Assembly: GCA_047284725.1 (NCBI GenBank)
Contig: JBJBEO010000001.1
Location: 862,044-926,043, forward strand
Length of the DNA stretch: 64,000 nucleotides
Source of the DNA: Synechococcus sp.
GTDB taxonomy: Bacteria > Cyanobacteriota > Cyanobacteriia > PCC-6307 > Cyanobiaceae
Reading direction: 5' to 3'
Below are positions 37,634 through 58,900 of this stretch, piece after piece. The first letter of the stretch is position 1, and every line of letters begins with the position of its first letter. The notes under the pieces were generated by a model. That model was not told the origin of the DNA. It ran no database searches and saw nothing but the letters and a program-made list of their open reading frames with translations. The translations under genes were made by a program, and so were the position numbers.

Positions 37634-39128
<1,495 letters not shown>

Positions 39129-39132
<4 letters not shown>

Positions 39133-40628
39133 CCGATCCAAACGATCACGGAACCAGCAGCATCAATGCTGCCGACCTCACGGCAGATCAGCGGGAGGCA
39201 GCTGCTGCCTTCAGCCAATGGCTGGCCAGTGCCGAGCATGGTGTTCCCTTTGTGCTCAGCGGTTTTGCCGGCAGCGGTAAGACGTTTCTGTCGATGCGAC
39301 TGCTACGCATGGTGGAGGCCACCGGCCTCTGCTGGACGGTGGTGGCTCCTACCCACAAGGCGGTGGGGGTGCTGCGTCAGGCGCTGGCCTTGGAGGGTCT
39401 GCAGCCCACCTGGTACCCCTCCACCATCCACCGGCTCCTTCGTCTCAAGCTCAAGCGCCAGGGTGATCGCGAAGTGTGCGAGCCCACCGAACAGACCGCC
39501 ATGGCCCTTGAACATCTCGGGCTGGTGCTGATCGATGAGGCGTCCATGGTCGACAGCAGCTTGCTGTCGATCGCCCTGCAATGTGCCCATCCCTTCCGGA
39601 CGCGGCTGGTGTTTGTGGGGGATCCGGCCCAGTTGCCGCCTGTCGGGGAAGCCGATAGCCCCGTGTTTTCCATGGATCGGGTCAGTGCTTCCTGCCTCAC
39701 GGAGGTGGTGCGCCATCAGGGTCCGGTGCTGCAGCTTGCCAGCTGTCTGCGGGATGGACGCTTGGCCTGTGAACGTCCGCCCCTGTTGCCAGCCGTCTCC
39801 ACCGCGATGGGCAGCGTCGCCAGCCTTGACCGTGCCGCTTGGCTGGTGCGGGCCAAGGAGGCGTTGAAGCAGGCCTCTGTGAGCGATAACCCTGATGCCG
39901 CTCGGATTCTCTGCTGGACCAACCGCAGCCTTGAGGAGCTCGTGCCCCATGCCCGCCGGGCCATCCATGGCGTGATGGCGGATCAAATGCCGGTCCTGCC
40001 GGGGGAGGTGTTGATCACCCGCACGGCGGTGATGGCTCCGGCCTCCCGGGATGGCGGTGAAACCGGGGAGGAACCCGATCTGGTGCTGGGCTCCAACCGT
40101 GAGCTCGTGGTGGAGGATGTGAGCCCGGAACGTTGTGATCTGGCGGATTTCGGCCTCAGTGATGCGGAACTCCATGGCGGTCAACTGACCCTCGACGGCC
40201 TTGGGTCTCCGGTGATTGACACCCTCAATGCCCGTGTGCGTTGCGGAGACTTGGAACTAACCTTGCGGATGCTTCCAGCCGTTGGCAGCGAGGCACGCCA
40301 GCAGTTGGATCGGGTGATGCAGCGGCTGCGCACCCAGGCCCGGGACGCCGGCAAGCGCAACGGCCGTTCGCTTTGGCGGCGATTCTTTCTGCTGCGTGAT
40401 GCTTTTGCCTCGCTCGGTCCAGCCGCAGTCCTTACCGTGCATCGCAGTCAGGGCAGCAGTTTCGGTGAGGTCTTTGTCGCTGATGACGTGTTCTGGCCCC
40501 AAGACCGGGCCTTGCGCCGACAACTCGTGTACGTGGCGGTGAGCCGGGCTCGCCATGGGGTTTATCTGGTGGGACGCCCATCCAACGATCCAGAAACCTG
40601 GAAGCAGGCTCTTGCTGAGACCCCCTAG
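39129..40628 (+). CDS. RecD-like superfamily 1 DNA helicase
   Basis: Walker A (GFAGSGKTF), Walker B (LVLIDEASMVD), VGDPAQLPPV, and C-terminal LTVHRSQGSSF. Confidence 0.85.
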
Positions 40629-40810
40629 TCCGTCCTCAGTTGTTCGTTTCGATTCACTGTTTTGGTCAAGGGCTCGCTTGTTGTCACGTTGACTGATTGA
40701 TCAGGTCTGAAGTCGCAATCGACTTGCCTCCTCGCTTCCTACGAGGCGAAGAGGCGGTCAGAGTGAAGAACGAGCCTGACGACTGAGGTGAAGAGCGTTT
40801 CTGATTCAAC

Positions 40811-41556
40811 CTACGAACGGTTGCGGTACCAATTGAAAAGCCAGTCGCTCAAACGTTTGCGTTGACCGGAGGGCAAAGATTCATTGGAGATGGCTCTTTG
40901 CTCTGGATCCTGTTCGTTGACAACTGTTGAGGGAGTGAAGGAGTTGTCGAAAAGGAGGGCTGTGTCAGGCTCGTCGTTGTTCTGTTGCTCAAAACTCAGT
41001 CCAGTTTCGAGTGTCTCATTGTGCATGGCGACCAGGTAATCATCATGGGTGTAATCGCTTTCGTCGTGATGATCAGAATCGATTTGAATTCTTGTGCCTG
41101 GGGATAATGTTTCGCTCATAACACTTGATTCATGATCGGACGTGTCATGGTCCAACCCAAGTGCATGTCCGATTTCGTGCATGAAGACAGACAGAAGATC
41201 AATTTGTTGTGCTGCTTCGCTGCCGCCGAGAGCGAGTCGTGTGCCATCTGGCTGAACCTGGTATTCACTGGAATCCAAGGGAGTGGAATCGATAAACCAG
41301 CCATGTCCTGATGCATCACGATCCATGGGGATTCGGGAGTAGGAGTAACTCGCCAAAGCCATCCCATCCCATCTAAATCGTCAACTCTGATGTCCATTGA
41401 TTGGAGATCGTTGAGTTGTTGAGTGGTCATTGAATGGGATGTGGACCAGTGACGCACTGCAGCGTCGTAAACCGCTCGAATCAGATCAGGCTCTATTTCG
41501 GAGAGATCATGAACAAGGGGGGTGGTGAGGTGATGCCCCTTGTTGCCGTGCTGCCG
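40811..41556 (-). pseudogene. 5'-truncated and frameshifted fragment paralogous to the C-terminal metzincin-like module of the giant gene
   Basis: Two overlapping reading frames (41116-41457 and 40811-41362) together reproduce the module ...DIRVDDLDG / ALASYSYSRIPMDRDASGHGWFIDSTP...FMHEIGHALGLDH. Similarity runs upstream to an in-frame TGA at 41557-41559 with no credible start. Confidence 0.7.
41359..41373 (-). repeat. Pentanucleotide triplet (GATGG)x3 at the frameshift point
   Basis: The plus strand reads CCATC CCATC CCATC. Deleting one unit restores a single frame (DLDG-MALASY). Confidence 0.9.
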
Positions 41557-41841
41557 TCACCGTCAACCAAAGCTGAGAGTTGGCTGAATAGAAATCCTTT
41601 GTCATTGGTTCTGACTTCAAGTCGTCAAGCTTGCTACGGTTCCAGGCATAGAAAGAGTGCCAAATCTGTAAAACTCGTAAAAGGGGCATGCCAGTCTGGT
41701 CAACAAAGTTACAATTGAACGGTAAAGTGTCGTTTTTGGCCTGCGAATGAAGCAATGCTTGCGCAAGAGTTTTATTTTGCGACGCACTTCTCATCTCGTT
41801 ACGGTTTGCAAGATCATCCTCAGCTACGAAACTCATCCTTG

Positions 41842-42912
41842 ATGACATCACTGCCGAGTCGCAACATAGATCTCTTTTCAGCACGCGAGACGTTTTCCGA
41901 TTATTTAGTTGTTGATAGGTTTTTGCGTGACTTGGTGGGCATGCGTGGCCTGAAAACGGCCTTCGACCGACAAGTTGTCGATGCACTCGTCGATGGGCCG
42001 AAATCCATGACTGAGTTGACCAATCGCTTGGGTGCTGATCAAGCAGGAGCCCAACTCCTCTTAGGCATCCTTGCCGTAAGCGACGTGGTTGAACGAATCG
42101 GCGATAAGTTCATGTTGACGTCTAGCTTCAGGCAGGCACTCCAGTTTCGCGATCTTCTGGAAGCGAAGTTGGACTTCGCCGGTTTTGTCCTTCTTGACTT
42201 CATCGATAAGTTTGACTATTTGGTGAATGATTCTTCAAGGTTCCAGGGTGAGGCTCAACTCTTTAGATTATTTGATTACCAGAAGGCAAAGAATCCCACA
42301 GTTCAGAGCTACGCCTGGACAAAGGTTTGGATAAGGCTCACGACTTCATTGACTCGCTACGAAGCTAAAGCTGCACTCAATATCTATGATTTTGGTAAGC
42401 ACAAAAATCTGCTTGATATCGGCGGCAATAGCGGTGAGTTTGTACTTCGTATCTGCAAGGCACACGATGATATGCGTGCCACCGTGATGGATCTTCCAGT
42501 CGTCTGCGAGTTCGGTCATGATCACATCCTGGTCGAGCCAGAGCGGGAAAGAATCGGATTTTTGGCTGGTAGTGCTCTGATCGACCCGATTCCTCAGGGT
42601 TATGACCTTATCTGTTTCAAATCCATGTTGCACGATTGGCCTGATGGAGATGTTTGCCTGTTTTTGCAGCGCGCCGCTGAGGCCTTGGATCCTGGAGGGA
42701 CGCTTTTGATCTACGAACGAGCCCCTCTCGAATTCACCAAACGTTCATTGTCAATAGGGCAACTTCCCGTCTTACTTTTTTCACGCTGGTATCGCACAGA
42801 GCAATTGTACTGTGTACAACTTGAAAACCTTGGTTTTAAAGACATCAAAGTGCACTATTTGCAGCTCGACAGCCCCTTCTTCATCGTGGCAGCACAAAAA
42901 CCAGAGATTTGA
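41842..42912 (+). CDS. SAM-dependent O-methyltransferase, family 2 (with wHTH dimerisation region)
   Basis: LLDIGGNSGEFVL...VMDLPVV...SMLHDWPDGDVCLFLQRAAEALDPGGTLLIYE. The likely start is ATG 41842, inside the tracked ORF 41755-42912. Confidence 0.85.
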   Translation: MTSLPSRNIDLFSARETFSDYLVVDRFLRDLVGMRGLKTAFDRQVVDALVDGPKSMTELTNRLGADQAGAQLLLGILAVSDVVERIGDKFMLTSSFRQALQFRDLLEAKLDFAGFVLLDFIDKFDYLVNDSSRFQGEAQLFRLFDYQKAKNPTVQSYAWTKVWIRLTTSLTRYEAKAALNIYDFGKHKNLLDIGGNSGEFVLRICKAHDDMRATVMDLPVVCEFGHDHILVEPERERIGFLAGSALIDPIPQGYDLICFKSMLHDWPDGDVCLFLQRAAEALDPGGTLLIYERAPLEFTKRSLSIGQLPVLLFSRWYRTEQLYCVQLENLGFKDIKVHYLQLDSPFFIVAAQKPEI

Positions 42913-42915
42913 ATC

Positions 42916-43896
42916 ATGCATTCTTTCATAGGTCCTGAATCCTCAGTTGGTCCGAGATTTAATCCAACACGTCTGAAACATTTATTTCACTACGACGATT
43001 ATGTTGAAGTGACTATGCACTTCAAGTGCAATCTGAAGTGCGTTCATTGCATGATAGAAAATACTATGGATTGGCTAGAGCCTGAAGGCCTGACTCGTCT
43101 CGAAGAAGTATGTGCCTATAACGACCAATATCGACGCTGGAGGGGAATTATCTTTACTGGTTCAGAAGTCACTCTTAATGCAGACTTGCCAAAGTGGGTA
43201 AATATGGCACGTCATCATGGTTTCGAGCGAGTGCGGATCCAGACCAACGGTATTCGATTGTCTGACTACGCATATTGCCGAGAGTTAATTGATGGCGGTG
43301 TCAATGAATTCTTCATAAGTGTCACAGCGGCCGATGCCGAAACCCATGATTCGATTACGAAAGTCAAGGGGTCGTTTGAAAAGACAATTCGTGGTTTGCA
43401 TAATCTCGATTCATTCAATGATGTTGTCTCGATCACAAATACTGTCGTTACCACTCTCTCCTTCACACACTTGCCAATACTTGTGCGAGAACTTGGACAC
43501 CTGAAGAACCTGGCTCGTATGGACTTCTGGAATTTCTGGCCGATGAATGAAAATGACGACAAGGATCTGATTGCTTCTCATCTGGATGTCTTGCCATGCC
43601 TTCGAGACGCCATCGCAGAGGCACACAAGCTCGGTCGAGCCGTCGAAGTTAAGAACTTTCCCGAATGTTTGCTTGCTGATGATGGTCAATCATTAGATAA
43701 TGGACAGCCAAAGCTTGTGATTGATCCAGCCTTCTGGCCTGAGTTTATGCGTAATGGATTCAATCAGTGTGTCTTTCGTGACCAGTGTGGTTCTGTTAAA
43801 TGTCTAGGTTTGAATACCGCTTATGTGAAGAAGTACGGATGGCACGAAGATGTTTTGGTGCCATTGCCTGTTCTGGAGTCCTTCGACAATGCATGA
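42916..43896 (+). CDS. Radical SAM enzyme with additional C-terminal cysteines
   Basis: CNLKCVHC (C-x3-C-x2-C) at 43027-43050, a GGVNEFFISV-type barrel strand, and extra Cys at residues 251, 285, 291 and 296 (43666-43803). Confidence 0.85.
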   Translation: MHSFIGPESSVGPRFNPTRLKHLFHYDDYVEVTMHFKCNLKCVHCMIENTMDWLEPEGLTRLEEVCAYNDQYRRWRGIIFTGSEVTLNADLPKWVNMARHHGFERVRIQTNGIRLSDYAYCRELIDGGVNEFFISVTAADAETHDSITKVKGSFEKTIRGLHNLDSFNDVVSITNTVVTTLSFTHLPILVRELGHLKNLARMDFWNFWPMNENDDKDLIASHLDVLPCLRDAIAEAHKLGRAVEVKNFPECLLADDGQSLDNGQPKLVIDPAFWPEFMRNGFNQCVFRDQCGSVKCLGLNTAYVKKYGWHEDVLVPLPVLESFDNA

Positions 43897-45082
43897 ATCC
43901 TCTTCGATAAATGCTGATGCCGTTCGGATCTTTATTGAAGCAGACGGCATTGTGCTTGAGCTCGGGCACAAAGTAACCCCAGATGGAAGTGAATCTGATG
44001 TGATTAAAGGCCTATCTCGTATAAAGCTCACTCCACAGACCTTTCGTCGTTTTGGACTGGCATTGCATGATGCAATAAGTCTGTTGCCCAAAGAGTCTGT
44101 TCTTCGTTCTGGATCGATTCCGACTCCAACGCCACAACGCTCTTCCGCTGCAAAAGCCTCGCTGGAAGAGTTGCTTGATCCCACCATCAACCTTTCCTCA
44201 TCCTCAGCGCCGACACCGATTTCAAGCCAGGATGCACAGCGGGTGTTCAAGCTGATTGCCAGTCTCGGTGCACCTTATGTCCATGAGCGCTCTTTTCGGT
44301 TCCGTGAAGGAGAGTTATTGCCCAATCGATTCCTGCTGACTGTTGGACGCTCAGGCAACGGCAGCACTTCCGATGATGCTTTGATGGACCTATTCACTAA
44401 CCTTTCCCTTCCTGCACCATTCCTCGAAGCTGCCCGCCAGCACATTTCGGCGGCCCGCTGTATACATGTTGGCTTTGAGGGAGACGGCGACAGTCCGCTG
44501 CTGAAGGTCTATTTGGAGATTGGAGGTCCTGACCAAATTAATCAGTCAACGCCTGATGCCGCAGTCCTTGAGCACATTGCGTACAAGTGGGACGTAAGAA
44601 ACAGGGAACGACGAACCGTTGCTCGTTACTGGTGGTATCCATACCTAAATGCCAGTGAATTGAAGAAACGAGTTGTTGAATTGTATGCAGATCATGATTT
44701 AGAGGCTCAGGATATTGCCCTTGGTGCCATTGAAATGGCAGCGCAAAAGATGCCTGAACGTGACATTCACTACCTTGAGGTCGAAGAAGAGGGCAACCCA
44801 AGGCGTTCTTACTCGATCAATTTTTATGATGCGGGACTTCAGGTCCGGGATTTGCATACATTGCTGGCACGCATGAGAAACTATTTTGATGTATCGCCAG
44901 GGAAGTTTCAGATGCTCTATGACCAGATTAAGACAAGGCGTTTGGGACACATCGCTGGAGGAATTCACCGCAATGGAAAAGGCTTTTTTAATGTCTACTA
45001 TGGTCCTCAGTTCATGGATTACGATTGTCAGGGCCATTGGCGCAGTGCTGTGTTTAGGGGCAAAGACAACTGCGATTTCTGA
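43889..45082 (+). CDS. Unknown protein X (397 aa): DUF3467-like N-domain, Pro/Ser linker, C-domain related to protein Y
   Basis: ATG 43889 overlaps the radical SAM stop by 8 nt (ATGcaTGA). The N-domain contains RIKLTPQTFRRFGLALHDAI. The C-domain shows beta-hairpin signatures (LLKVYLEIGG, IAYKWDV, GFFNVYYG). Confidence 0.7.
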   Translation: MHESSSINADAVRIFIEADGIVLELGHKVTPDGSESDVIKGLSRIKLTPQTFRRFGLALHDAISLLPKESVLRSGSIPTPTPQRSSAAKASLEELLDPTINLSSSSAPTPISSQDAQRVFKLIASLGAPYVHERSFRFREGELLPNRFLLTVGRSGNGSTSDDALMDLFTNLSLPAPFLEAARQHISAARCIHVGFEGDGDSPLLKVYLEIGGPDQINQSTPDAAVLEHIAYKWDVRNRERRTVARYWWYPYLNASELKKRVVELYADHDLEAQDIALGAIEMAAQKMPERDIHYLEVEEEGNPRRSYSINFYDAGLQVRDLHTLLARMRNYFDVSPGKFQMLYDQIKTRRLGHIAGGIHRNGKGFFNVYYGPQFMDYDCQGHWRSAVFRGKDNCDF

Positions 45083-45084
45083 CT

Positions 45085-45954
45085 ATGCATATCAACGACC
45101 GCTTCGAATATATCACTGAGAAAGATTTATATCATAATTATTGCCTCTGGCCCTACCTGCCAGTTACTGCTTCCATCGACAAGTTTCGCTCTATCAATCT
45201 TCTCTATCACGCTTTTGACGTTGCAGAAATCGATCACCGTATTTTTGATTTTGTCGAGGCGATACGTGATGGCATTGGCAGCTTCCGCACGGTGTGGGGA
45301 ACTAAACTCATTAACAATAATTTGGCATGGGAATTTTACTTCTATGACTATGGGAGGCGTGTACGCGAGCTTTCGATCAGCAGGTTGATCAAGATTTTGG
45401 CGCCATTCACGCACTGCTCCGTTTCAGTCAACGAAAATATCAATTATTTTATGTTTTCGTTTGATGTCGATCAAGAGCTGATTACAGGTGCTCGTCAGCT
45501 TGATATTGTTCACATGTATCTCGGTAATGCTGGAAGCACTGTCTCCTCAGGAATTTCCTACGCCCTGAGCCAGCAGTCATCCCGCCTCGAGAATCTGTAT
45601 TACTTCTTCGAAGTGCCGTCCATGTTGCAACAGGTGATGGACAAGGTTGGTGACTCGGCCTACGTCGATGAAGCAGCGATTCCTATGGATTTTTTGGTGT
45701 GGCCGGAGCTTCGATCATGCACCACTATCTGTGTGGCCAACAAACAGAGCAATGACACAATTTACTTTTCTGGGTGCACTGTAGATCAGCTTTTGTACTT
45801 TCTGATTCGGATTGGGTATCCAAGTAAGATCATTGACTTTGTGCAGTCTAATCGCAATAATCTTGACCATCTTCTTTACGACGTGGGTTATGATTACCGC
45901 ACGAAGGGTGATAAGGTTGAGATCGTCAAGAGTGGCTATTACGGGATATTTTGA
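45085..45954 (+). CDS. Unknown protein Y (289 aa), paralogous to the C-domain of X
   Basis: ATG lies 2 nt after the X stop. Five aromatic-rich hairpin signatures are present (LAWEFYFYDYG, YFMFSFDV..IVHMYLG, ISYAL..LYYFFEV, ICVANK..IYFSG, LLYDVGYDY..EIVKSGYYGIF). Confidence 0.7.
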   Translation: MHINDRFEYITEKDLYHNYCLWPYLPVTASIDKFRSINLLYHAFDVAEIDHRIFDFVEAIRDGIGSFRTVWGTKLINNNLAWEFYFYDYGRRVRELSISRLIKILAPFTHCSVSVNENINYFMFSFDVDQELITGARQLDIVHMYLGNAGSTVSSGISYALSQQSSRLENLYYFFEVPSMLQQVMDKVGDSAYVDEAAIPMDFLVWPELRSCTTICVANKQSNDTIYFSGCTVDQLLYFLIRIGYPSKIIDFVQSNRNNLDHLLYDVGYDYRTKGDKVEIVKSGYYGIF

Positions 45955-46577
45955 ATCAATCCTATTCGACAAGAATAGTCGTGGCTGTTTCTGCACCGGT
46001 TGGTGGTGGTAAAACCTCTCTGGTGCGTGGTCTGGCGCAGGCTATGGATGGTGTTCCTTTTCATTTCGATCACTACGAAGACCTGACTCAATTGCCGCTT
46101 GAAGAAGTGAAGGCATGGCTCCATTTCGGTGCCGAGATTGCAGACCTTTCGATTCCCGCACTGACGGATGACCTGATGGATCTGAAGCATGCCAGCTCAC
46201 CGGCCGTACCCGCCAGTGGAGTGGCCATTCAAACCGCTCAATTTGTCTTTTTTGAGACCCCGTTTGCCCGGTGCCACCTTGAGTTAGATAATCTCATTGA
46301 CTTAGCGATCTGGATTGACACACCTCTCGACGTCGCTTTGGCCCGCAACATACGGGAGTTCATGCGGCAACCTGAGTTGAGATCGAAATTGTCTGCGTGG
46401 CTTCCTGACTACCTTGATGGCTATCTCGACGCAGTGCGTGACATGCTGTTGATGCAGCAGGAGACTGTTGGTCGTGCAGCAGATATCACCCTTGATGGGA
46501 CAGCCGATCTAGCGACAAACTTATCCATCGCAGAAAGAGAGATACGCAGGCTTCTGAAAAACAGATCATGCGACTGA
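45951..46577 (+). CDS. P-loop kinase of the uridine-kinase/PRK-like type
   Basis: Walker A (SAPVGGGKTS) at 45993-46019, then IWIDTPLDVALARNIRE. TTG start overlaps the Y stop (TTGA); a GTG start is possible a few codons downstream. Confidence 0.75.
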   Translation: MNQSYSTRIVVAVSAPVGGGKTSLVRGLAQAMDGVPFHFDHYEDLTQLPLEEVKAWLHFGAEIADLSIPALTDDLMDLKHASSPAVPASGVAIQTAQFVFFETPFARCHLELDNLIDLAIWIDTPLDVALARNIREFMRQPELRSKLSAWLPDYLDGYLDAVRDMLLMQQETVGRAADITLDGTADLATNLSIAEREIRRLLKNRSCD

Positions 46578-46646
46578 TATTTGACTCCTATTGGACAGTG
46601 TCTTCTTTCTGAATCAATGTGGGCAAAGCCTATGGCTCCGGTTCCT

Positions 46647-46940
46647 TTAACCTTTGAATGCGCCGTAACGCTTGACATGCTCTGACAATACGGTTTGGCT
46701 GACCTTGGCTAGTTCCTTGGCGACAGATGGGGTTAGGTGAATTCGATCGGTGAGCTTAGCTTGCCACTCACCCTCAGTTAATCCGGGCTCAGTGCGTCCA
46801 AATAGCAAGGTTATATCCTCACCAGAGCACGACACATTGCAGACATCTGCGAAGGACGTTGACAGGTTCTTGTCGTCCCAGGGGGCTTTACGGCTCTGGC
46901 TAGAAAGTTGCATGCTCGCAGAGGAATTAGGGGGGGTCAT
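46647..46940 (-). CDS. DUF3467-like small protein
   Basis: ITLLFG...RIHLTPSVAKELAKVSQTVLSEHVKRYGAF matches the DUF3467 pattern as I remember it (EFVLDF...RIILTPQHAKRLL.AL..N..KYE..FG). It starts 22 nt after the giant gene stop on the same strand. Confidence 0.7.
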   Translation of the reverse strand: MTPPNSSASMQLSSQSRKAPWDDKNLSTSFADVCNVSCSGEDITLLFGRTEPGLTEGEWQAKLTDRIHLTPSVAKELAKVSQTVLSEHVKRYGAFKG

Positions 46941-46962
46941 GAGAAGTTAATGGTAGTAATAA

Positions 46963-49900
46963 TCACTTCCGGCGAAAGAGGCCTAACAATGGATCCAAGA
47001 GCTCCTGCCCCCAGCCGAGAACGTGAAGCCTCCTTCTTGCCTCTGGGGCCGTAGGAATGTGATTTTTAATTCTCGCCTCTTTTAACGTGTTATCTGGACT
47101 CCTCCTGTCAGAGGTGACCTCGGCAGTAGTCAGTGTTGAAGTTTCCAGCTCAACATCTTGAACATCGATCGTGTCAAGGAGTCTGCGCTGCTCTGCGCTG
47201 AGTCGACGCTTCTGCTCCCAAATTGCAATCGCAGCAGCGCGTGTGTTCTCCAGAATCTGTGGCTGGATGTTTGGCAGCGATTTGCTCCCGTCCCCAGATT
47301 CAGTTAGCCTGTCTGCATCAGGATTCACGCTGGCGATGAGGTTTTCCTCATGCATCTCAGGCAGATGGCGCACACCAGCTTCCAGCATCTGTTCCATGAG
47401 CCCCTTCTCCTCATGGGATATACCGATAAGGTGTCCGATCTCGTGGAGCTGCACAGTTAAGAGATCCATTTGGTCGTAGGCGGACGATTCACTTGCCGCA
47501 ACATAGAAGCCTTCGTCAATTTCTTCGAACTCCTCATTGACATTAGGAGTTGCATCAATGAACCAGCCATGACCGGCCGCATCGAAATCGAGCGTGATGG
47601 TGTTGCCCTCAGCTGTTGCAAGGATGGAACCTTCAAGATCGTCCACACGTAGATCCACCGAATCAAGGAAGGTGAGTTGGGATTCAGATAGCTGGGCGGA
47701 CTGATCCCAAAGATCGATGGCTGTTGAGAAGGTGCTGTAAAGCAGCTTGCGGTCCACCTCATATAGTCCTTCGCTGTTGGTTTCTGCTCCGGTAACTCCT
47801 GCTCTCGAGTCGGGGGTACCACCGGCAAGAATGTTTTCGGAGTCTTGATGGGCCAAGTTGGGAGTATTCGTTCTAATGCGGAAGTTATCGAAAATACTGC
47901 TCCCGCCCAGGGTCATAAGGCCTACCTCACCGTCTACGACTATGCCGTTGTAGTTGTAGCCGATGACCGCATTGCCGTTTACGTTGACACTCACGGATCG
48001 GCCTTTGAGCGACACTTCGAGGTCATACTCGGTCAGCTCGTTTAGAGTCCATGCCGCCGAGGCGTCGTGGATTATTCCGGAATCCCTGTAGTGACCAATG
48101 ACCACCTGGTCGGCGTCTTCATCCAGGATGGCGAACTTGAAGTCATCTTCCTTGTAGTAGTCGAATACCACTCCACCGAAGGATTTGACTTTGAGATCAG
48201 TCCAGATGTTGAGGTACGAATCGTAGGCAATGTTCAAGCCGATGGTCGACAGTGCCACGTTGTCGCCAATTGCTGTGGCTTCGTACTTCTCGGTTTGCGA
48301 GTTGACCGTCCACGTGTCTTTTTGGACCACGAAGTCATCGGCGATGCCGTCGGAAAAGTCTTCGGTCTCATCGTAGGTGTAATCCGGAGGCAAAACCTTG
48401 ACGAAGACATCGTCAATGCGGGCCTTGGAGTCATAAGAGCCGATACCTATTAGTCCGTTATTGAGGTTGTACTGGAAACCATCATCATCGATACGTGGCT
48501 CGTAAACGTGGGTGAAGATATCCTTGCCATCAATTACTAACGATGCCGTTAAGCCGTTGATTGACAGAAGCACGCTGTAGTCCTTGTTGGGCCTGAGCTT
48601 GGCATTCGTCTGTTTGATCTCGTGCCAGCCGCTCGCATCGCGATAGCCCATTTCCAACTTGTCGTTGGAAATGTTGACCCCGGCCCACTTGAAGTCTGTT
48701 GGGTTCTGGTAGTCGAAGACGATGTAGCTGTTCGCTTTCGAGCCGCCGATGGGCTTGGCGGCGTTGATCGTCGCCTCGATTTCGTAGTAGATCGGCAGGT
48801 ACTCGTCGAGGTAGTAAACAGCAACGGCATCCCCGCCGGGCGTAGCTGGTGCCACCTCGAGACGGCCCTGATTGACGTTGAAGACTCCGCTGTCGACCAG
48901 GAATCGCTCATTGGTGCCATTGTTGAAGTCGGCACCTCGCAGCACGTCGCGGCTGCCGCCAGGGATGTTGCCTGGCTGCGGATCCTGAGGAGCACCTGTC
49001 TGTTCTTGCCATAGAGCATTGTCTTTCTGGGTGGTCAGCCCCAGTTCTCCGTTGGGCTCCCCATTGCGATCGGGGTTGTTGAACGTGTCTGCCGCGCGCG
49101 TCTGATCGGCGCCTTGGCTCTCCGAAAGGTCATAGAGGAAGTCGAACAGCGCTGGCGTGACTTGACGACTCACAGTACCAAGGCCGAATGCCGCGAACGG
49201 CACCAAATAGCTGTTGTACTCGCCGACCCAGTCAATCAGACGGTCGCCACCTGTATTGGCGATGAGCACATCCATCCCCGCGCCACCGAAGGCTCGATCC
49301 TCCCAGAAAGGATGGGTCTCCGGCTGGTCGTTGAGCTCACCGTTGGTGCCCAAGACATCGTCGGCGTTGAGCACGTCATTGCCCCAGCCACCGTAGATGC
49401 TGTCAGTTCCCGTACCTCCGACCAGCCAATCGTTGCCAAGGTCACCAAAAAGTACGTCAGCGCCATCGTCGAATGCGGTTCCGTACTCCAGATGTTGCTG
49501 TAATTTCGCACCTGTGTCTTTGTCGTCGAAGTTCAGGAACCACTCGAAGCCGTCGGTGGTTTTGTTGAGCGAGCCGTCAACGTTAAGCTCGATCTTGCGC
49601 AGTGGATCGAACTCGTCGTAAACCGCGAACTCTCCGTCGCGCTCACTTGAAAAGCGCAGTGCGTCCCCTGGGTTGAACGGTCTTGCCCAGTCGCTGCGCT
49701 GGATGGTGATGATGCCGTTGCCATCGTCGACCTGCGTGTAAGCCAGGGTCAGCGCCTCGGCTCCCGACATCGCGTCATCACCCGAGCCGCCGTGCAGGAA
49801 GTCGGCCTGAAGGCCGCCGAAGATGATGTCGTTGTAATTGTCCGAGGCGTCCCAGAGCTGATTGTCGAAGCCTTGGGTGATCGGGTTCACGTTGAACGGC

Positions 49901-52900
49901 GTCAGGTTGACGCTCTTCTTCAGCGCACCGGACACGTTGATCGTAGCCTGTTGCGCCTGGCCCGGCGTAGAAATTTCGAGGTCGAGGTTGCCCGCATCGA
50001 TGGCGTCGATGCCGAAGAACGACTCGCCCGTCGAGGCATTGCGGCTGGTGTAGATACGTCCGTCATCACCGATCACGCCGTCCTGGCCAGTGCCACCGGA
50101 GATCCAGTCGTTGCCGTAGCCACCGATCAGGTCGTCGTCGTCGGCATCACCGAAAAGCACGTCGTTGCCGACCATGCCGTAGATGAAGTCGTCACCCGAC
50201 TCACCGTGGATCTCGTCGCCGGCGCCGATGTCGCTCTCCTGGCTGGCAGGGTCGTGATCGATGCCGCCCTGGGTGTAGTCGACCAGGTCGACGGCGCGAA
50301 CGACGATGCGCTCGCTGCCGCGATTCTCGGAACTCGAGGACTGGTCGTAGGTAAACGCGAGCATCGCACCGCTGGAGTCGACCAGGCGGTAGATATTGGC
50401 GTTGTCACCGGCGATGGCATCGGAGTCGCGCCCGTGGCGTTCCTCGAACACCAGGTCGACCGCCTGATCCTCGACGGTGTACTCGTTGCGATTGATGCGC
50501 GTCGCCGCGCCGCCGAAGATCAGGTCCGCCGCGTCCGGACGATCCGTCGGATCGACCAAGCCGAACAGAATCGAGCTGCCGCCGATGATGTCGTCCTGGC
50601 CAAGGTTGCCGAAGATGACATCGGAGCCGCCGTTGCCCTCGATGTAGTCGTCACCGTCGTCGACGCCCTCTATCGAGGCGTTGACTACCAGCAGACCGTC
50701 ACTGTCGCGGTACGCACCGACCGTCGTCTGGGCGACGTTGCCGGCGTCGAGTTCGATGAACGAGTCACCCTGTATGGTGTCGTCACCGAGCTGACCGAAG
50801 ATTTCGTCATCGTCAGCGCCACCCGCGATGTAGTCGTCACCGAAGCTGCCGGCGAACGGAGTATCGGAGTGGTCGAGCAGGACGATGTCGCGTGCCGTAT
50901 CTCCGCTCGGGTCGAGCTCCGCCGCACCGGCGATCAGCGCCTTTCCGTCGGTGCCACCGACGATGTCCTCGCCGTAGATGGTGCTGCCCTGCAGCTGGCG
51001 GAAGCGTTTGCGCAACGAATCGCCGCGACGAACGATGGTCGCGTTGTCACCGGCGATGGCGTCGTTTCCGGCGCCGCCGTCGATGAAGTCGCCCGCGTCC
51101 TGGCCATTGGCGACGTTGTGCCCCCCGATGATGTCATCATCGCCGTTGTTGCCGAAGATTGTGTCGCTACCCTGCTGACCAAGGATAATGTCGTCGCCGG
51201 CATCGCCGGTGATGAAGTCCGCGTCGCCGAGCAGGTCGTCGAGAGGGAACCACACGCTGCTTCCGAGAGTTTCGGTCTCGATGGCGGTGAAGGTGAATGG
51301 CGGAGTCATCGTCGCTTGCGGCAGGGACGCCGGATCCAGCACACCTCCGAGCGTCTGCTCGATGCGGCCGTTGTCGCCGAAGATGAGGTCCTCACCGTCG
51401 TTACCCGAGATGGTGTCGCGACCGGCGCCACCGAGGACGATGTCATTGCCCTCGTCACCGGCAATTCTGTCGTCGTCGGGACGTGTGATGAACGTCTGAA
51501 TACGATCGACCGCGGCGTCGGCGTCAAGAGCTAGGTCCATGGTGCCGTGATCGCCGAAGATCAGGTCGTTGCCGGTGTTGCCGTGGATGTCATCACCGCC
51601 GGTCCCACCAAAGATCAGGTCGTCGCCGGCATCACCGAAGATGAAGTCGCCCGCGCCGTTGTCGGGGATGGTGCTGGTGATGAAAGTCACCTGCTCCGTT
51701 GTGCGGATGCGCTCCGTACCCGGCTGCAGGTCGATACGACCGTGGTCGCCGAAGATGATGTCGCCATCATCTCCGCCGTGGATGGTGTCCGAACCGGTCG
51801 CCATGTCGTCGCGGCTACGCGAGTCGGCTGTGTCGACGTCGACTACGCTCAGCCACAGCGTGGTGCCGTCGCGGTGCGGCAGGTCAACGTTGAAGCCGGA
51901 GTCGCCGTAAATGTGGTCGGTGCCTTTCTGGCCGAAGATCTCGTCGTTACCGGAACCGCCGGCGATGTGGTCACCGTCCATGCTGCCGAAGATGGTGTCG
52001 TCGCCACCACCACCGAAGATGGTGATGCCGCCGGTGAACTCAAAGGTGCCGTCTTGCTCGTCGGTGTCGACGCTGGAGATACCGCTCCAGGCCGACGCAT
52101 CGATGATGTCGTTGCCGGTGCGATCGAAGGCGATGGCGTTGCTGGTGATGCCGGTGACCATCGTGATGGTGGCGTCGACGCCGAGTTCTTCGACCGTCAG
52201 GCCGCCTGTCAGCGTTAATGTTGTCGCGGTGACGTCTGCGATCTCGTAAGCGCCGTCGTTGGCGATGCTGCCCTCGATCTCCACCGGGCGACCGACAACG
52301 TAGCCGTCGTCAAGCCAGCTGCCGCCGTCGTTGCGGCTGATGGAGCCCGCAGCACCCAGATCGACGTTGGCCTCCACTTTGATCGGCGCCGAAGGCACCG
52401 AGTCGTAGCGGCTTCCATCTTGCGAAGTGTCGCCGTAGACCACCAGCACGCCGGTGGCCTTATTAATTACAATTGAATCGCCGCCGACGATGGCTTCGCC
52501 TGTATCTGAGACGACCTTGGTCAAGGTCCCGCGGATGGTCTCGGTGGTAAGTGCTCCAACTACAGTGATAACGTCGCCATTGATGTCCGCGATCTCATAG
52601 GTCGCATTGTTGTCGTCGGTGTCGGTGACCTTGATTGTGTCGCCGACCTCGAAGCCCTCATCGATCCAAGAGGTGCCGTCAACGCGGGTGATATCGCTGC
52701 CGTCGAAACCGAGGTCGTTGTTGACCTCGAAGATGCTATTACCACCACCGTGAATTACGGTGACGAGTCGTTCCGCCGCGCCCACCGTGCCGTGGCTGGT
52801 GTCGTCGACCTGGAAGTTGTCGTTGCCGACACCCAGCATGATCTCTGTCACCTCGATGTCGTCGAAGGTGATACCACCCTCGAAGGTCACCAGCTCGCTG

Positions 52901-55900
52901 CCATCCTGCGCGATGCTGATGTCGAAGGTAGTGGTCGGCCCCATGCCCAACCCCTCGAGATTGGTCGGGTTGTCGAGAACGATGATCGGGTTGTTGTCCA
53001 GCGTCGTCGAGTGCAGGCGACCCGAATCGTCGGCGAAACTGTTGTCGTTGTAGACATTTAGCGTGTCAGTCTTGGTGGTCTCGTCGGTGTCATCGACGAA
53101 GACGTTGGGCTCGGTGGTCGACTCGGTCGGCAAGACGACAGCCTTCGACAGCGACCGGTCGCGACCCAGCGCGACACCACCCTCGATGACCACCGGACCT
53201 TCGATGGTGTTGAGGCGGTGCTGACCGAGGGTCGGGGCGCGCTCGACATCCTGTCCTGCCGTGGCCTTGAAATCGGGGTTCTGATCGATCACGACAGTCT
53301 GTTCTTGGAACCAGTCGGTGTCGGTGAACACCATTTCCGTGGTCAGTTCACCCGTCGCGATATTGCCGAGCAACGAGAGGATCGACTGGCCGTCGGAGAA
53401 CGCGCTCACCGTGACATCGGTGTCCGGCTGGCTCAGTAGGCGCACCGTGTAGGTGTCGGTGCCGGCGCCCACGACATTGTCCTCGATGACCAGCGTGCTG
53501 CCGTTGGACTGCTGTACCAGAATCCCTGGGGTGTCGTCGTCGAGTACGCGGATGCGCAGCTCGTTGGCATCGGCGTCGACATACACGCTGTCGCCCTCGT
53601 TAGCCGTGCCCTCGAACGAGCTGGTCAACAAGTGGTCGATACGGACTGATTCCGGGTTCTCCTCGGTAGCGTCGTCGCTGGCCTTCACGAACACCGTCTG
53701 CTTCACGTCGAAGGTGCTGGCGTCGAAGGTGAGTGCACTGAGCGTCGTGGTGAAGGTCGCGTCGGTGTAGAACTCCACCTCAGCGTTGCTTTCGATGTTC
53801 ACTGTGACGATCTCACCGGCCTCAGGCGCCACCGCAAGGCGCACGTCGTAGGTATCGGTGATCGCACCGGCGCCGACTACCCCTTCGAGAACAAGTGTGC
53901 CGCCGTCGGTCTCGTCGATAATGACGCTGCCGAGATCGTCGTCGCGTACCAGCACGACGGCATTCTTGATTTTGGCGCCGTTGTACGGCTCGTCGGCGCT
54001 GTGAATCATGTGGCTGACCATGACGTTGCGGTCGCCCTCGATGACGTCGTCACCGATGGCGCGGACGAAGACTTCTTGGTCGCTGTCCCAGTCGACGCCC
54101 GCGGTAAAGGTCAGAACCACGGCTTCGAAGAAGTTGACGCCATCGGTCGAGACCAGCACGGTGCCGGCGTCGCGGCTGCCACCGTCGCGTTTCGGCAGTC
54201 GCCTGTCGTGCGAGGACGAGGACGCCGCCGACACCGTGATGTAGACCTCGGTGCCGTCAGTCACGTCGGCGTCGGCGACCGACAGACCAACCATGTAGGA
54301 GTCCTCGTTGTCGACGCTGTCCTCGGTGACGACAATTTCGCCGTCAATGTTGTCGATAACCACCAGGCCGAGCGTCGGGGTGGCGACGTTGAACGGCACG
54401 CCCTCGATCAGCAGGCCGTCGTAGTCGGCGTCGCCGCTCATCGAGGCGTGGTTGATGGCCGCGCTGCGACCCTCGAGGTCCTGGCTCACCACGCGCTCGG
54501 TGACGTCGCCGCTGATGTTGAACGTATCCGAACCCAGACCGCCGATGATGGTGGTGACCGCGTTGGCGCGCGTGCCGAGTACGAAGAAGGTGTCGTCGCC
54601 CTCGAGTCCATCGACCTCGACTGCTTCCTCGACGCCATCAAGGCGAATGTTCAGGCCAGCTCCGAAGATGCCGTCCGGTGTGATGATGAAGGCATCGTCG
54701 GCCTCCGTTCCTATTGCCACCACCGTATCGAAGCCGTCACCACCGTTGATGCTCACTGGCGCGTTGACGTTGTACTCGATCTGGTCTTCGCCGTCGCCGG
54801 AGTTGACCTCGATCTCGCCATCGGCCACGAAGGCGCGTACCACGAACAGGTCGTTGCCCGACTCACCCTCCATGCGCAGCTCGGCCTTATTGGAAAAGAC
54901 GTTGAACTCGTCCTGGCCCTCGCCACCCTGCAGCACCGCCGCTTCACTGATGCCGAAGCTCAGCCAGTTGTCGTTGGTGATGCCAGTTAAGCGGATCTCG
55001 TCGGAGTCCGAGGTCAGGTCGATGCCTTCCTCCCACGGAGCCGTTCCCGGCACCGCGATCGGCACCGAACCGAACACCTGGCCGACCTGGAACATGTCGT
55101 CGCCCTCGCCGGCGTCGATAGTCATAACTGTGCTGGTGTCGTCGATGTAGAACTCGTCGTCCGCGTTGCCGGAGAGGATCTCCAGACGGCCGTTCGTGGT
55201 GCCGTCGTAGTTAATACGCTCGACTTCCGGATTTAGCACCGTGGCATCGTCGCTGACCGGGTTGAGCCACGCCACGAAGTGCTCGCGAATGAGGAAGTAG
55301 TCCTTGCCGTCAGCATTGTTGGCGTCTCCGATTTCTGTACCGACGATGGTGAGCTTGTCGGCACCGTCGTTCTCGGCGCCCGTATCGTGAACGTTGATCA
55401 GGTACTCGGTGCGGCCACCCGTGACGTTGATAACGACGCGGTCGGTCTCGGCACCGCCGTCGATGTCTAAAGTGTCACGAACTTGTTTGTTGCCCACGGG
55501 CACACCGTTGACCAGCTTGTCATCATCGAACTGCCGATCGTGGCGCGTGGTCATCCTCGTCATGTGATCGACGGTGATGAGGTCTTCACCCTCCTGGCCG
55601 AATACCTGGGTATGTCCGATGATGCCGGCTTCGGTGGTACCACCTTCCGGACGAATCTCGATCTCGTCGTCGTCGGCCTCCCCGAGGATGTCGATACGCT
55701 GGGCATACGTCTTGCCCTCAAGTATTATTAGTGCCCCGACGCCTGTGTCGTCGTCAAGATAATCACCTTCGATCCGTATATAATCGGTCGCATTGATCAG
55801 GCTAGTGGCGGCTAGGTGCAGGTTGTCGCCGGCGCGCAGGAAAATGCCGTTTGAGTCGATCGGCAACTGGGTCGCCAGCTGCGTCGGGATGACGTCGGCC

Positions 55901-58900
55901 GCCAGGACGGTACTGTTGGTCGAGACCAGTAAGTCGTCCCCCGCGGTGAGCGTGACGTCAGCGGTGGTCGCGTGAACCAAGCTGAACTGTCGCAACGTGA
56001 TGTCGGTGCCGGCGTCGCCAGTAATGTTGATGAAACCGGTGATGGCAGCGTTGTTCTCGATGATCAACGCTGCCGCGGTCGCATCGATATCTACCGAACC
56101 CGTCGTAGCCGTGACGTCAGAGTCGTCGATGGTGACGCTCTGCGCGGCGGTCAGAGAAACATCGGTCCCGGCGATCAGCACTGAGTTGTCAAGGCCCTGA
56201 GCCGGTGCATCAACGTCGTCGTTGGTGTCATCAGCGATGGTGAGGTTCATGCCAGCCATCGCCACAATCGCGTCGGAGGCACTGACTGTTGATCGGTTCA
56301 CGACCAGTACGTCATTACCGGCGGTGAGCGTTACAGCGCCACCTTGCGCCGTCACATCCGAGTCGTCAATGGTGACGTCATCGTTGGCGGTCAACACCAC
56401 GAAGGTGCCTGCCGTGATGATCGAGTTGTCTTCGCGATCGACGGTTTCGCCTATGTCGTCAGCATTGTCATCCTGGATTGTGAAATTAGTGCCTGCATTA
56501 GCCGTCAACGATATTGCAGCAGTCGCGGTTGAAGTGTTGGTGATGTTGATGTTGCCGCTAGTGGCCTCTAGATCCACATCGCCCTGTGTCGCCACCACTT
56601 CGGAATTGTCGATTGTGAGGTCGGCACCCGCTGTCATAAAGACGTGAGTCGCGGCGTTCATCACCGATGCCCGCGCGATCACGACATCGCGCCCGGCATC
56701 GATCAGAACCGAGGTGCCCGTGGTGATGTCGGTAGTGTTGTCGAATAGGACATCCTGCGTGGCTTCCGCAATAAGTGAGGAACCGGCATTGATGGTTGCG
56801 TCGATTGCCCTGATTGAACCGCTGGATCCGTCGGCGCTGTTGTAGTCGGCTTCCAGGACGATGGCTTTTGCTGCGGTGACCTGTGTGTTGGTCTCGAGGA
56901 ATAGGTCGTCGCCGGCGAACAGCGAAACATCACCGCCAGTGGACTGAATCTTGATCAACGTCTTGACGGTGAGGTCATCACCAATCGAAGCGGATTCGTA
57001 CGCGTGTACGACTATGTTGCCGCCGGCGGTAATGTTTTCGGCCACCGTGATCGGGCTCTGCGCCTCGAACAGAACGTCGCCGAATGCCTCGATACCGGTG
57101 GCGGACTGGTCGTTGTGTGAGATGGTCACCCCACCGACGTCGACCGCACCGCTGTTGTCGATGTAAACGTCGCCGCCGGTGGACTTGGCCTCAATGCGCT
57201 GCGCCTGCGTGTTGATCGACGCGCCGTTGGAGCCGATGCTGCCGACCGCGAACAGCCATAAGTGGCCCGACAGCACGTTGGTCGACGACAGGTCGGCGTC
57301 GAAGATGCCACCCTCGGGCGAGGTGATGAAGGCGTTGTTTCCGTTAGAGTCGATCTGGTCGAGGTAGAGATGCTGTGTGCCCGAACCGGTGGCCGAACGC
57401 TCGGTGATGTAGATGTTGCCGAGCACGCCATTGCTGGTGGCTTTGAGGCTTCCGGTGCCGGAGTACGAGCTATCGATGTCGAGATCGTTGCCTAGCTGAC
57501 CGATCGCTCCTGGAAGACCGGTGCCGGCGACCAGGGTGATGTGGTTACCGATGACATCGGCCTTGGTCTGTGCATCGATGCCGGTGGCGTCTGTGGAGTC
57601 CGGATCGAGCGGATTAACGAGGTCAACCGCGTCGAGGATCGACGCGTCCGCTTCGAGCCAAACGTCTCCGCCAGTCGAAAGAATGTTGCGGACGTTCATC
57701 GCCCCCGACGTTTCCGCCAGGAAGATGTCACCGCTTGCCGTGGCCGTGATGGTTCCGGAAACAGTGTCGAAGTCGAGCAGGTTGCCGGATGCGCCGATGC
57801 CATCGAGCGCCCAGAGAATGATGTTCTGGGCCTGGATGTTGGTGAAGTTGTTCTCCAGTCCATCGAGGATCGAGCCGTCGGCGGCGATCAACACCGCGTC
57901 GCCGCCTCCAGCGAACACTGTGCCCACATTCAGATCACTGGCGTCTTCGATGATGAATACATCTGCCGCGGCACGTGCGGTGAGGATTCCGCCGCCTACC
58001 AGGTCAACGTGGATTTCCTCGCCGTCCTCTCCGATGGTGCCGCTGCCGGCCTCAAGGATCAGGTTGTTGGCACGGAAGTTTGTATCTGTATCGCCGATAT
58101 CCGCCGTCAGGATGCTGGTCCCGACCTTGACACGGACCTCATCGCCAGTGACGGTGTCGCCCGACTTGATGGAATCGACGTAGATGGTGCCCTCGGAACC
58201 GAGGAACACCTGCTCGTCGGCATCGACGTTGACGACTCCGCTGGCCTCGATGTCGATGTCCTCCACAAGGTTGATGCGGCTGATGTCGATCTGCTGGGTG
58301 AAGCCGCCCGCGATATCTACCGTGACTCCGGTCTCGTCGTCGAGCGTGCCGCCGCTGTTGAGCGTCAGCTTGCTGGCGGTGACATTCTCGATAAGGAAGA
58401 ACTCGTTGGTGCCAGTGACGTTGGCGCTGTTGCCGGAAATGCTGATCACCATGCCGGCCTGGAAGCCATCGGCCATCCAGCTGCCGCTGTTCCGGGTGAT
58501 GGTGTCCTGCCCGGAAATCTCGTCAGCAAAGCTCACCACCACTGCGGTGGCAGTGGCGCTGACCACCGGCGCGTTCGGGTCAGGAACCACATTCAGCAGC
58601 TGAACCGTGGCGAGTTCAGCGGAAAGCGCCTGATCCAGCGTGATGACGTTACCCACCACGCTCTCGATCCTATAGGTCTCAAAATCTTCGTTCGCGTTGA
58701 CGGCATTGCCGACGACCTGGATGAAGTCTCCAGCAGTGAACGCGGCGAAGAGGTCTCCCGAAATGCGCGTCAGCGTGCCTTTGCCATCACTGTTGCCGAA
58801 CGCCACCTCCGAAGTAATCGGTGCGCTCTTGAGGTAAGTGACATCGTTACGCTCGGCAGCCGCCAGCGTCACACGCTCATCATCGGTAAGGGTGATGGTG

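Follow-up and report, generated by a model that had tools for sequence, protein, structure and literature searches.

A conserved gene cassette beside giant RTX exoprotein genes encodes two predicted prenyltransferase-barrel proteins and is a candidate maturation system

The subject of this report is a five-gene operon in a stretch of DNA from a marine Synechococcus sp. (64,000 nt, hereafter the window). The LeuA encoded in the window falls into one 90%-identity cluster with those of strains MIT S9509, UW179A and PROS-7-1. The operon (41842-46577, + strand) encodes an O-methyltransferase (OMT), a radical S-adenosylmethionine (SAM) enzyme (rSAM), two proteins here called X and Y, and a P-loop kinase, and it lies beside genes for a DUF3467 protein and a giant RTX/metzincin exoprotein. 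Several described systems resemble parts of it. The F-type peptide prenyltransferases of cyanobactins and other ribosomally synthesised and post-translationally modified peptides (RiPPs; PagF, LynF, KgpF, LimF, DciF, PatF) have the ten-strand prenyltransferase barrel (PT-barrel) that is predicted for both X and Y, and act on ribosomal peptides within multi-enzyme maturation clusters. Unlike those clusters, the cassette has neither PatA/PatG proteases nor a short precursor, and it pairs two barrels with a rSAM and an OMT, an X-DUF3467 fusion and giant neighbours. The small-molecule ABBA prenyltransferases (AmbP1, AmbP3, FamD1, EpzP, NphB, CloQ, DMATS) are the top structural matches of Y, and a WelO5-family oxygenase occurs in some loci related to the one studied here. 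Compared with hapalindole/ambiguine-type clusters, however, the cassette has no isonitrile synthase and no polyketide or phenazine scaffold gene, and identity is ~10%.

RTX toxin activation, with the HlyC acyltransferase and type I secretion, follows a like logic: an enzyme encoded next to a large RTX exoprotein lipidates it in the cytoplasm, and it is then exported with a HlyD-family adaptor. In that system Lys is acylated from acyl-acyl carrier protein, whereas the enzymes here are of the predicted PT-barrel, rSAM and OMT types; the ATP-binding cassette (ABC) transporter is absent here, and in related loci a SecA-like ATPase and an M50-HlyD fusion stand at that position. Radical SAM maturation systems (QhpD/QhpG of quinohemoprotein amine dehydrogenase, daptide, epipeptide) have in common with the related loci a rSAM with a probable auxiliary cluster, a QhpG-like flavoprotein and an M50-type leader protease, but no such family is matched above its cut-off here, there is no PqqD-type RiPP recognition element (RRE), and the presumed substrate has thousands of residues.

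Giant proteins of the LEPR-XLL class share the NF012209 motif with cassette-adjacent giants; the SecA-like protein in cassette loci is a separate gene. The C-terminal part of the giant in the window is made up like that of a Vibrio giant of ~8,000 aa, which combines LEPR-XLL, RTX and serralysin domains (PMC10868602). Export of giant proteins has been proposed as the role of SecA-like domains that lie within or close to them (bioRxiv 10.1101/2023.11.21.568195), and LEPR-XLL is mentioned in passing for Chlorochromatium giants (bioRxiv 10.64898/2026.03.19.712371). These papers on LEPR-XLL and SecA-like giant proteins do not mention a rSAM/OMT/PT-barrel/DUF3467 gene set. Literature searches on DUF3467, LEPR-XLL, PT-barrel with radical SAM, and SecA-like with HlyD found no description of the set, no description of a SecA-like/HlyD/M50 export set, and only passing mentions concerning the function of DUF3467 or LEPR-XLL. 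An original prediction, made from the letters of the window, had not recognised the gene combination as any described pathway, and these searches bear this out.

Set against these systems, the cassette is widely conserved, undescribed and genetically tied to giant LEPR-XLL/RTX exoproteins. We infer, at a little short of an even chance, that the five genes, gained by horizontal transfer, form a maturation cassette which acts on the giant exoprotein or together with it: it would alkylate, and probably prenylate, the giant and tailor it further, and DUF3467 would be the targeting element.

The operon and its conservation

The operon and the two genes that face it are as follows.

41842-42912, + strand: OMT, class I O-methyltransferase of family 2 with a weakly matched N-terminal dimerisation domain, 356 aa
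42916-43896, + strand: rSAM, radical SAM enzyme, 326 aa
43889-45082, + strand: protein X, 397 aa, DUF3467-like N-terminal domain and predicted PT-barrel
45085-45954, + strand: protein Y, 289 aa, predicted ten-strand PT-barrel (ABBA fold)
45951-46577, + strand: kinase, P-loop nucleoside-kinase-like, 208 aa, TTG start, accessory component
46647-46940, - strand: stand-alone DUF3467 protein of 97 aa, whose gene converges on the operon and comes straight after the giant gene
46963-64000, - strand: giant RTX/metzincin protein, frame open to the window end, >5,600 aa

A second possible in-frame start of the OMT lies upstream at 41755; the start was taken as 41842 because homologues are 345-359 aa long. 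The four junctions were read directly as TGAatcATG between OMT and rSAM (+3 nt), ATGcaTGA between rSAM and X (-8 nt), TGActATG between X and Y (+2 nt) and tTTGA between Y and the kinase (-4 nt, with the TTG start). The five + strand open reading frames (ORFs) and all four predicted spacings were thereby confirmed, and the operon is one compact, intact, translationally coupled unit.

More than 1,289 homologues of Y and more than 286 of X were found in a 90%-clustered database, and the Y profile matched 550 representatives of 50%-identity clusters at E<=1e-3. A scan of one genome per species placed Y in at least 115 species; 80 of these loci were fetched, nearly all from metagenome-assembled genomes. 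The cassette counts given here rest on 83 distinct loci fetched through Y (locus numbers are prefixed L), many of the incomplete ones ending at contig edges. These loci span >10 phyla and include Acidobacteriota, Burkholderiales, Acetobacteraceae, Nostoc/Trichormus, Planctomycetota, Desulfobacterales, Syntrophales, Geobacteraceae, Rokubacteria and Verrucomicrobia. One named isolate, Nostoc sp. FACHB-152, carries the cassette.

The rSAM was present in 73 of the 83 Y loci, X in 70, the OMT in 63 and the kinase in 24. The gene order was OMT-rSAM-X-Y, as in the window, in 27 loci and X-rSAM-Y-OMT in 24. With OMT, rSAM, X and Y together and syntenic in 55 of the 83 independent loci, the arrangement is far beyond chance, and the co-occurrence in other genomes with which the original prediction stood or fell is found. 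Fusion proteins join the X-barrel to Y (P0392 and P0402) and the rSAM to Y (P0393). From the shared synteny and the fusions it follows that rSAM, X, Y and OMT form one functional unit, to which the kinase is accessory.

Proteins X and Y and their partner enzymes

Neither X nor Y matched Pfam or NCBIfam at E<=0.1, which bears out the prediction that they belong to no recognised family, and Y had no match in the PDB by sequence at E<=10. The claim that X and Y are paralogous found no support in sequence (BLASTP E=0.1; hhalign probability 0.5%), the predicted fold alone being alike. A 100% match between larger X and Y alignments was discarded as evidence of paralogy; it is an artefact because alignment A3 includes X-Y fusion proteins.

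AlphaFold2 models were built from 120-sequence alignments. The Y model reached a predicted local distance difference test score (pLDDT) of 93.9 and a predicted template modelling score (pTM) of 0.92, and the X model a pLDDT of 87 and a pTM of 0.73. Each model has ten strands in five alpha-alpha-beta-beta repeats, the ABBA/PT-barrel. All Foldseek matches of X and Y in the PDB at E<=0.001 were prenyltransferases, aromatic or peptide. The top matches of Y were AmbP1, KgpF (ranked second), EpzP, AmbP3, FamD1, NphB, CloQ and DMATS enzymes (E from 6e-7), and those of the X C-terminal domain were the peptide prenyltransferases LimF, PagF, DciF, KgpF and PatF (E from 2e-7). On these models X and Y would be new families inside the prenyltransferase fold and not members of a known family.

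Y is the most conserved component of the cassette, with 47-82% identity across phyla and 57 invariant residues in 120 sequences. ABBA enzymes bind the diphosphate and shield the carbocation with basic and Tyr residues that line the barrel; in X and Y, invariant K, R, Y, H, D and E residues lie on predicted strands, those of Y including K74, E83, Y85, Y87, Y145, Y172, K220, Y227 and K282 and those of X including K206, Y208, K233, R305, Y313, R361 and Y370. X consists of a DUF3467-like domain (residues 11-65, nt 43919-44083), predicted to fold as beta-beta-beta-alpha, then a disordered linker, then the predicted PT-barrel (residues 111-376, nt 44219-45016). The link of the window X to DUF3467 was made by hhalign, in which the window DUF3467 protein matched the N-terminal domain of the X family with 90% probability (E=1.6e-6), and through its homologues, many of which match PF11950 directly (P0148 at 3.5e-11). 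In five loci (L049, L050, L057, L033, L064) the X genes are longer (~680-720 aa) and encode DUF3467 followed by two tandem PT-barrels. Many X homologues (P0163, P0166, P0175 and others) bear the JGI name 'tryptophan halogenase', which is probably a misannotation because no Pfam domain backs it.

The OMT matched PF00891 with 81.9 bits (cut-off 22.3, E=5e-23), carries the SAM-binding glycine motif LLDIGGNSG, and matched the dimerisation family PF08100 weakly, with 20.1 bits (below the cut-off of 25.6). The rSAM matched PF04055 with 64.8 bits (cut-off 29.5, E=1e-17). Its CX3CX2C motif at 43027-43050 (C38/C42/C45) is invariant in 56 homologues, as are four C-terminal Cys (C251-x33-C285-x5-C291-x4-C296, codons at 43666, 43768, 43786 and 43801), which on sequence grounds are probable ligands of an auxiliary Fe-S cluster. 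No named NCBIfam equivalog model was reached at its cut-off by the rSAM, the matches being N-terminal only; the best was HxsC4 (102.6 bits, cut-off 500), and MoaA gave 59 bits (cut-off 284). There was no SPASM match in Pfam, and the SPASM-type NCBIfam models aligned with the N-terminal core only. The kinase has a Walker A motif, SAPVGGGKTS, and scored 20.2 bits with PF00485 (below the cut-off of 22, E=6e-4), 88.7 bits with NF006085 (below 198, E=4e-25) and 30 with udk (cut-off 220); in the PDB it matched a uridine kinase (E=8e-4). It is best described as a P-loop NTPase or kinase whose substrate assignment is uncertain. The earlier calls of a family-2 O-methyltransferase, and of a radical SAM enzyme with extra C-terminal Cys as possible auxiliary-cluster ligands, therefore stand; that of a uridine-kinase/PRK-like kinase holds for the Walker A motif but fell under every curated cut-off.

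The best PDB match of the rSAM by sequence was the archaeal tetraether lipid synthase GDGT-MAS, weak and confined to the core (E=5e-8), and B12-binding radical SAM genes that neighbour the cassette in some loci best match TIGR04072, 'lipid biosynthesis B12-binding/radical SAM protein'. Together with the fact that prenyl chemistry is lipid chemistry, these likenesses would suit a cassette that modifies an envelope lipid or glycolipid, which then anchors or receives the giant, the giant itself staying unmodified. We consider this very improbable. The matches are all core-only and lie far under the family cut-offs, no membrane-enzyme family was recognised among the five proteins, and the fusion of X to DUF3467 and its likeness to peptide prenyltransferases point to polypeptide substrates.

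DUF3467, the giant protein and the export genes

The original prediction found no convincing precursor peptide, transporter or regulator encoded in the operon. A view of the operon as a unit on its own misses a conserved context, namely the DUF3467 gene (46647-46940, - strand), the giant gene (from 46963, - strand) and a SecA-like/HlyD/M50 module found elsewhere.

The DUF3467 protein of the window matched PF11950 with 47.1 bits (cut-off 25), and the order of giant and then DUF3467 is also seen in loci L002 and L085. A stand-alone DUF3467 or DUF3467-like gene occurs in 36 of the 87 related loci, and DUF3467 is fused to X in 35. The stand-alone gene immediately precedes the OMT gene in type A loci and the export genes in type B loci, and two copies are present in L011, L055, L056 and L070. 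Across 13 aligned sequences the Trp of a WDD motif is invariant, and a Tyr is nearly so. Clustering of ORFs of 25-130 aa within 1.5 kb of the cassette in the 83 loci gave only DUF3467-like genes and antisense artefacts as candidates for a short precursor peptide, and no PqqD-type recognition element or RRE was matched in Pfam or NCBIfam.

The small DUF3467 protein could itself be a RiPP-like substrate, modified by the cassette and exported by the HlyD/M50/SecA-like machinery, the giant being a bystander or receptor. Its gene sits where precursor genes sit (upstream of the OMT or of the export genes), is doubled in some loci as precursor genes often are, and encodes the invariant Trp and the nearly invariant Tyr, and the M50 domain of the export genes resembles RiPP leader proteases. 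This explanation is nonetheless quite improbable in our judgement. The protein is conserved along its whole folded length, with short and variable tails (4-20 aa) and no recognisable core region, and it is present with giant and export genes where no modifying enzyme is found (L085). Pfam treats it as a broad family from bacteria and archaea, and a domain fused to enzyme X is better suited to a recognition or chaperone module.

Because DUF3467 keeps company with giant and export genes in a locus that lacks the cassette (L085), it belongs to the giant/export system, to which the cassette is an optional extra. That X carries a DUF3467 domain is the strongest argument for a cassette that acts on whatever DUF3467 binds, most simply the giant. 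A kinship of DUF3467 with the SecB chaperone was also looked for in sequence; neither hhalign with E. coli SecB nor a search of the PDB with the DUF3467 profile found anything, which leaves a functional analogy only.

The frame of the giant stays open from 63694 to 64000 (- strand), so the listed ATG at 63693 is not the true start and the protein exceeds 5,576 aa. It contains RTX repeats (PF00353) and, near its C-terminus, a matrixin-like HEIGHLIGISH motif (PF00413), and it is a putative member of the LEPR-XLL class of giants. It is 63-73% identical to a 10,119-aa giant in L002, where cassette, DUF3467 and giant have the same layout as in the window. Its conserved C-terminal part is the following.

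47359-51036, - strand: conserved C-terminal module of the giant, residues 4220-5445, with RTX repeats, two weak lectin-like matches and a metzincin-like domain

The weak matches, both below cut-off, are to PF06439 (3keto-disac_hyd) and PF21708 (galactocerebrosidase C-terminal lectin domain). Over up to 1,250 aa the module is 38-73% identical to cassette-adjacent giants in ten loci of other phyla (L002, L004, L008, L013, L020, L029, L038, L049, L050, L055), and it has >570 homologues in the protein database. A 10,271-aa gene follows the cassette in L083, a gene of >3,848 aa precedes it in L084, and a stop-free frame of at least 1,500 aa was present in 23 of 36 loci of at least 18 kb. In 20 loci with a visible giant N-terminus, pattern matching found a basic stretch and then F.LE.LEPRLLLSAD; the three giants tested against the NCBIfam model NF012209 (LEPR-XLL) all matched it, with 30-33.6 bits (cut-off 17). 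The c8 'giant' ORFs without a Pfam match were rejected as antisense frames of + strand giant genes.

Several of the giants of L004, L008, L020, L045, L050 and L065 share a tail motif of approximately W-x-S/T-D/E-F-x-x-x-L-G ... PN-x-x-I-K/R-I, and deltaproteobacterial giants have a different tail, GLMGWKVISGG ... KR-x-K-x-W-K-N-A-G-S-W-K. Such tails could be secretion or modification signals. The 3,798-aa protein P0485 has a LEPR-XLL-like N-terminus (DPLEPRVLLNGD), in which the LEPR pattern is not matched, and its C-terminus continues into a Y domain that lacks the first third; it represents a genuine fusion of giant and Y or else a chimera of assembly or gene calling.

A full locus of the second gene order contains giant, X, rSAM, Y, (kinase), OMT, DUF3467, HlyD-GAF, M50-HlyD fusion, SecA-like and HlyD genes, and the export module was found in such loci in L046, L049, L057, L062, L070, L073 and L078. 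Its M50 domain is similar to the leader proteases of RiPP systems (daptide protease NF041824, 2e-44), and the SecA-like protein, the product of a separate gene of 660-680 aa, has motor and preprotein-binding domains. Two further loci were found through homologues of the giant's C-terminal module, and their neighbourhoods were read. L085 (36-10882) contains giant, DUF3467, HlyD-GAF, a 714-aa protein, SecA-like and HlyD genes and no cassette. L086 (10001-22285) is alike, also without the cassette, with no DUF3467 recorded and with only a match to an RND beta-barrel in its last gene. The 711-714-aa protein of both loci stands at the position of the M50-HlyD fusion and has no Pfam match on record. 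This recurrent set of DUF3467, HlyD-GAF, M50-HlyD, SecA-like and HlyD genes, which comes after giant genes both with and without the cassette, has the look of an export apparatus with a SecA-like motor where type I secretion has its ABC transporter.

A SapC-family gene lies between the giant and the export genes of L086 (14020-14817), and the Chlorochromatium preprint lists sapC, tolC and hlyD beside LEPRxLL giants (bioRxiv 10.64898/2026.03.19.712371). The SapC occurrences hint at a wider shared neighbourhood around LEPR-XLL proteins.

Additional tailoring genes are found in some lineages. They encode a WelO5-family 2-oxoglutarate oxygenase, a CMAS-like methyltransferase, two B12-binding radical SAM enzymes, MiaB/RimO-like enzymes and a Trp-halogenase/QhpG-like flavoprotein, and loci with variable tailoring genes after the cassette are L001 (11512-13849), L084 (10908-16731), L020, L009, L021, L045, L067 and L068. 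These accessory genes fit extensive tailoring of peptide or protein side chains. The WelO5-like oxygenase and CMAS-like methyltransferase would equally be at home in natural-product clusters, and with them the evidence for a different explanation can be weighed: a small-molecule pathway that prenylates, methylates and rearranges, for example, an aromatic amino acid, a quinone precursor or a nucleoside, and that is merely co-carried with giant adhesin genes on mobile islands or makes a cofactor or signal for the giant. The closest solved relatives of the OMT are small-molecule methyltransferases (DsyB, Plu4895, MmcR, DnrK; E ~1e-19), the best structural matches of Y include AmbP1, AmbP3, FamD1, EpzP, NphB and CloQ, each of which acts on small molecules, one product of the operon is a P-loop protein akin to nucleoside kinases, and a classical short precursor peptide was not found.

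Even so, we judge a small-molecule pathway unlikely. The conserved gene set of the related loci includes no scaffold-forming enzyme. X has peptide prenyltransferases as its best matches and bears DUF3467, which otherwise travels with giant genes and a protein-export module. The adjacency to giant genes is kept across >10 phyla and in two gene orders, and a RiPP-type M50 protease and a SecA-like motor share the loci.

Base composition bears on how the cassette came to its present place. The guanine plus cytosine (GC) content of the five operon genes was 43-51% (mean ~47%), higher than the ~40% first estimated, against 60-65% in the flanking DNA. The low-GC patch (~40700-48700) overruns the operon on both sides and takes in a pseudogene remnant on the left, the convergent DUF3467 gene, and the last ~580 codons of the giant gene (46963-48700, - strand), where GC is 50-54% as against 59-65% in the remainder of the gene. 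Since cassette, DUF3467 and the end of the giant gene share one patch, they appear to have been acquired together, which suggests that the giant's C-terminal end was replaced, or was gained along with the cassette. The left border and the genes to its left are as follows.

41090-41505, - strand: frameshifted remnant of the giant's C-terminal metzincin-like domain (HEIGHALGLDHD), left border of the low-GC patch
37661-38614, + strand: geranylgeranyl diphosphate (GGPP) synthase, CrtE-like, 3 kb upstream of the operon, in host-GC DNA left of the island
38611-39132, + strand: DUF212 divergent PAP2 protein, in host-GC DNA left of the island
39129-40628, + strand: RecD/PIF1-like helicase, in host-GC DNA left of the island

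A tblastn search with the giant matched the remnant to residues 5310-5442 in two frames (41% identity, E=2e-16), and an ORF that overlaps it (40811-41362) matched PF00413 (E=3e-9). Two copies of this segment in the same orientation therefore bracket the cassette and DUF3467 and may be the scar of an integration or rearrangement. No riboswitch or other RNA was found and no tRNA at the island border, and promoter and terminator scans gave results no better than shuffles. The GGPP synthase was rejected as a dedicated supply of prenyl donor; it lies in host-GC DNA, and its nearness is probably a coincidence because none of the 87 related loci has a polyprenyl synthase.

Proposed maturation of the giant and its meaning

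Under the reading of the operon as a maturation cassette for the giant, DUF3467, both free and as the N-terminal domain of X, would bind an unfolded stretch of the giant, in its LEPR-XLL leader or its C-terminal module, and would recruit it as a RiPP recognition element does. X and Y, in complex with the rSAM, would use a diphosphate donor to alkylate side chains, most likely with prenyl groups. The rSAM with its putative auxiliary cluster could carry out a C-H functionalisation or form a cross-link, the OMT may cap a hydroxyl or carboxyl group, and the optional kinase may supply or activate a phosphorylated intermediate. The modified giant would then be exported, as the SecA-like/HlyD/M50 set would do in other genomes.

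Several points weigh against this reading. The assignment of X and Y to the PT-barrel comes from predicted structures, the Foldseek TM-scores are modest (0.35-0.54) at an identity of ~10% (10-15% with F-type peptide prenyltransferases), and neither protein matched a curated prenyltransferase family such as Pfam PTase_Orf2, Trp_DMAT or the cyanobactin prenyltransferases. ABBA enzymes act mostly on small molecules, and both the OMT, through its closest solved relatives, and Y resemble small-molecule enzymes. The N-terminus of the giant, where a LEPR-XLL motif would stand, lies beyond the window end, and the SecA-like, HlyD and M50 genes are absent from the window. In several Burkholderiales loci (e.g. 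L001, L006, L009, L016) the cassette stands with extra tailoring genes and no giant in the stretch fetched, and the cassette-adjacent giants are not all mutually homologous.

With both sides considered, the product class, which the original prediction had left open among small molecule, modified nucleoside or lipid, and modified peptide or protein, can now be narrowed towards protein modification. It is a doubtful but real possibility that the cassette is the enzymatic arm of an undescribed pathway which lipidates and tailors giant LEPR-XLL/RTX exoproteins through two new PT-fold families and a rSAM, targeted by DUF3467 to a substrate of thousands of residues. The ABC transporter would give way to a new type of export machinery, in which a SecA-like motor works with an M50-HlyD fusion and further HlyD adaptors.

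Giant secreted proteins occur widely, and little is understood of their synthesis, maturation and export. Those on the surface of Synechococcus are important for motility and for protection from grazing. No function has so far been assigned to DUF3467, to the LEPR-XLL motif or to the families of X and Y. If the cassette modifies the giant, two families would be added to the prenyltransferase fold, and there would be a rare example of a very large bacterial exoprotein that enzymes alkylate. A testable role would fall to DUF3467 as the recognition element and to LEPR-XLL as the leader. Prenylation of proteins, and chemistry of the kind seen in RiPPs, would then extend to some of the largest bacterial proteins.

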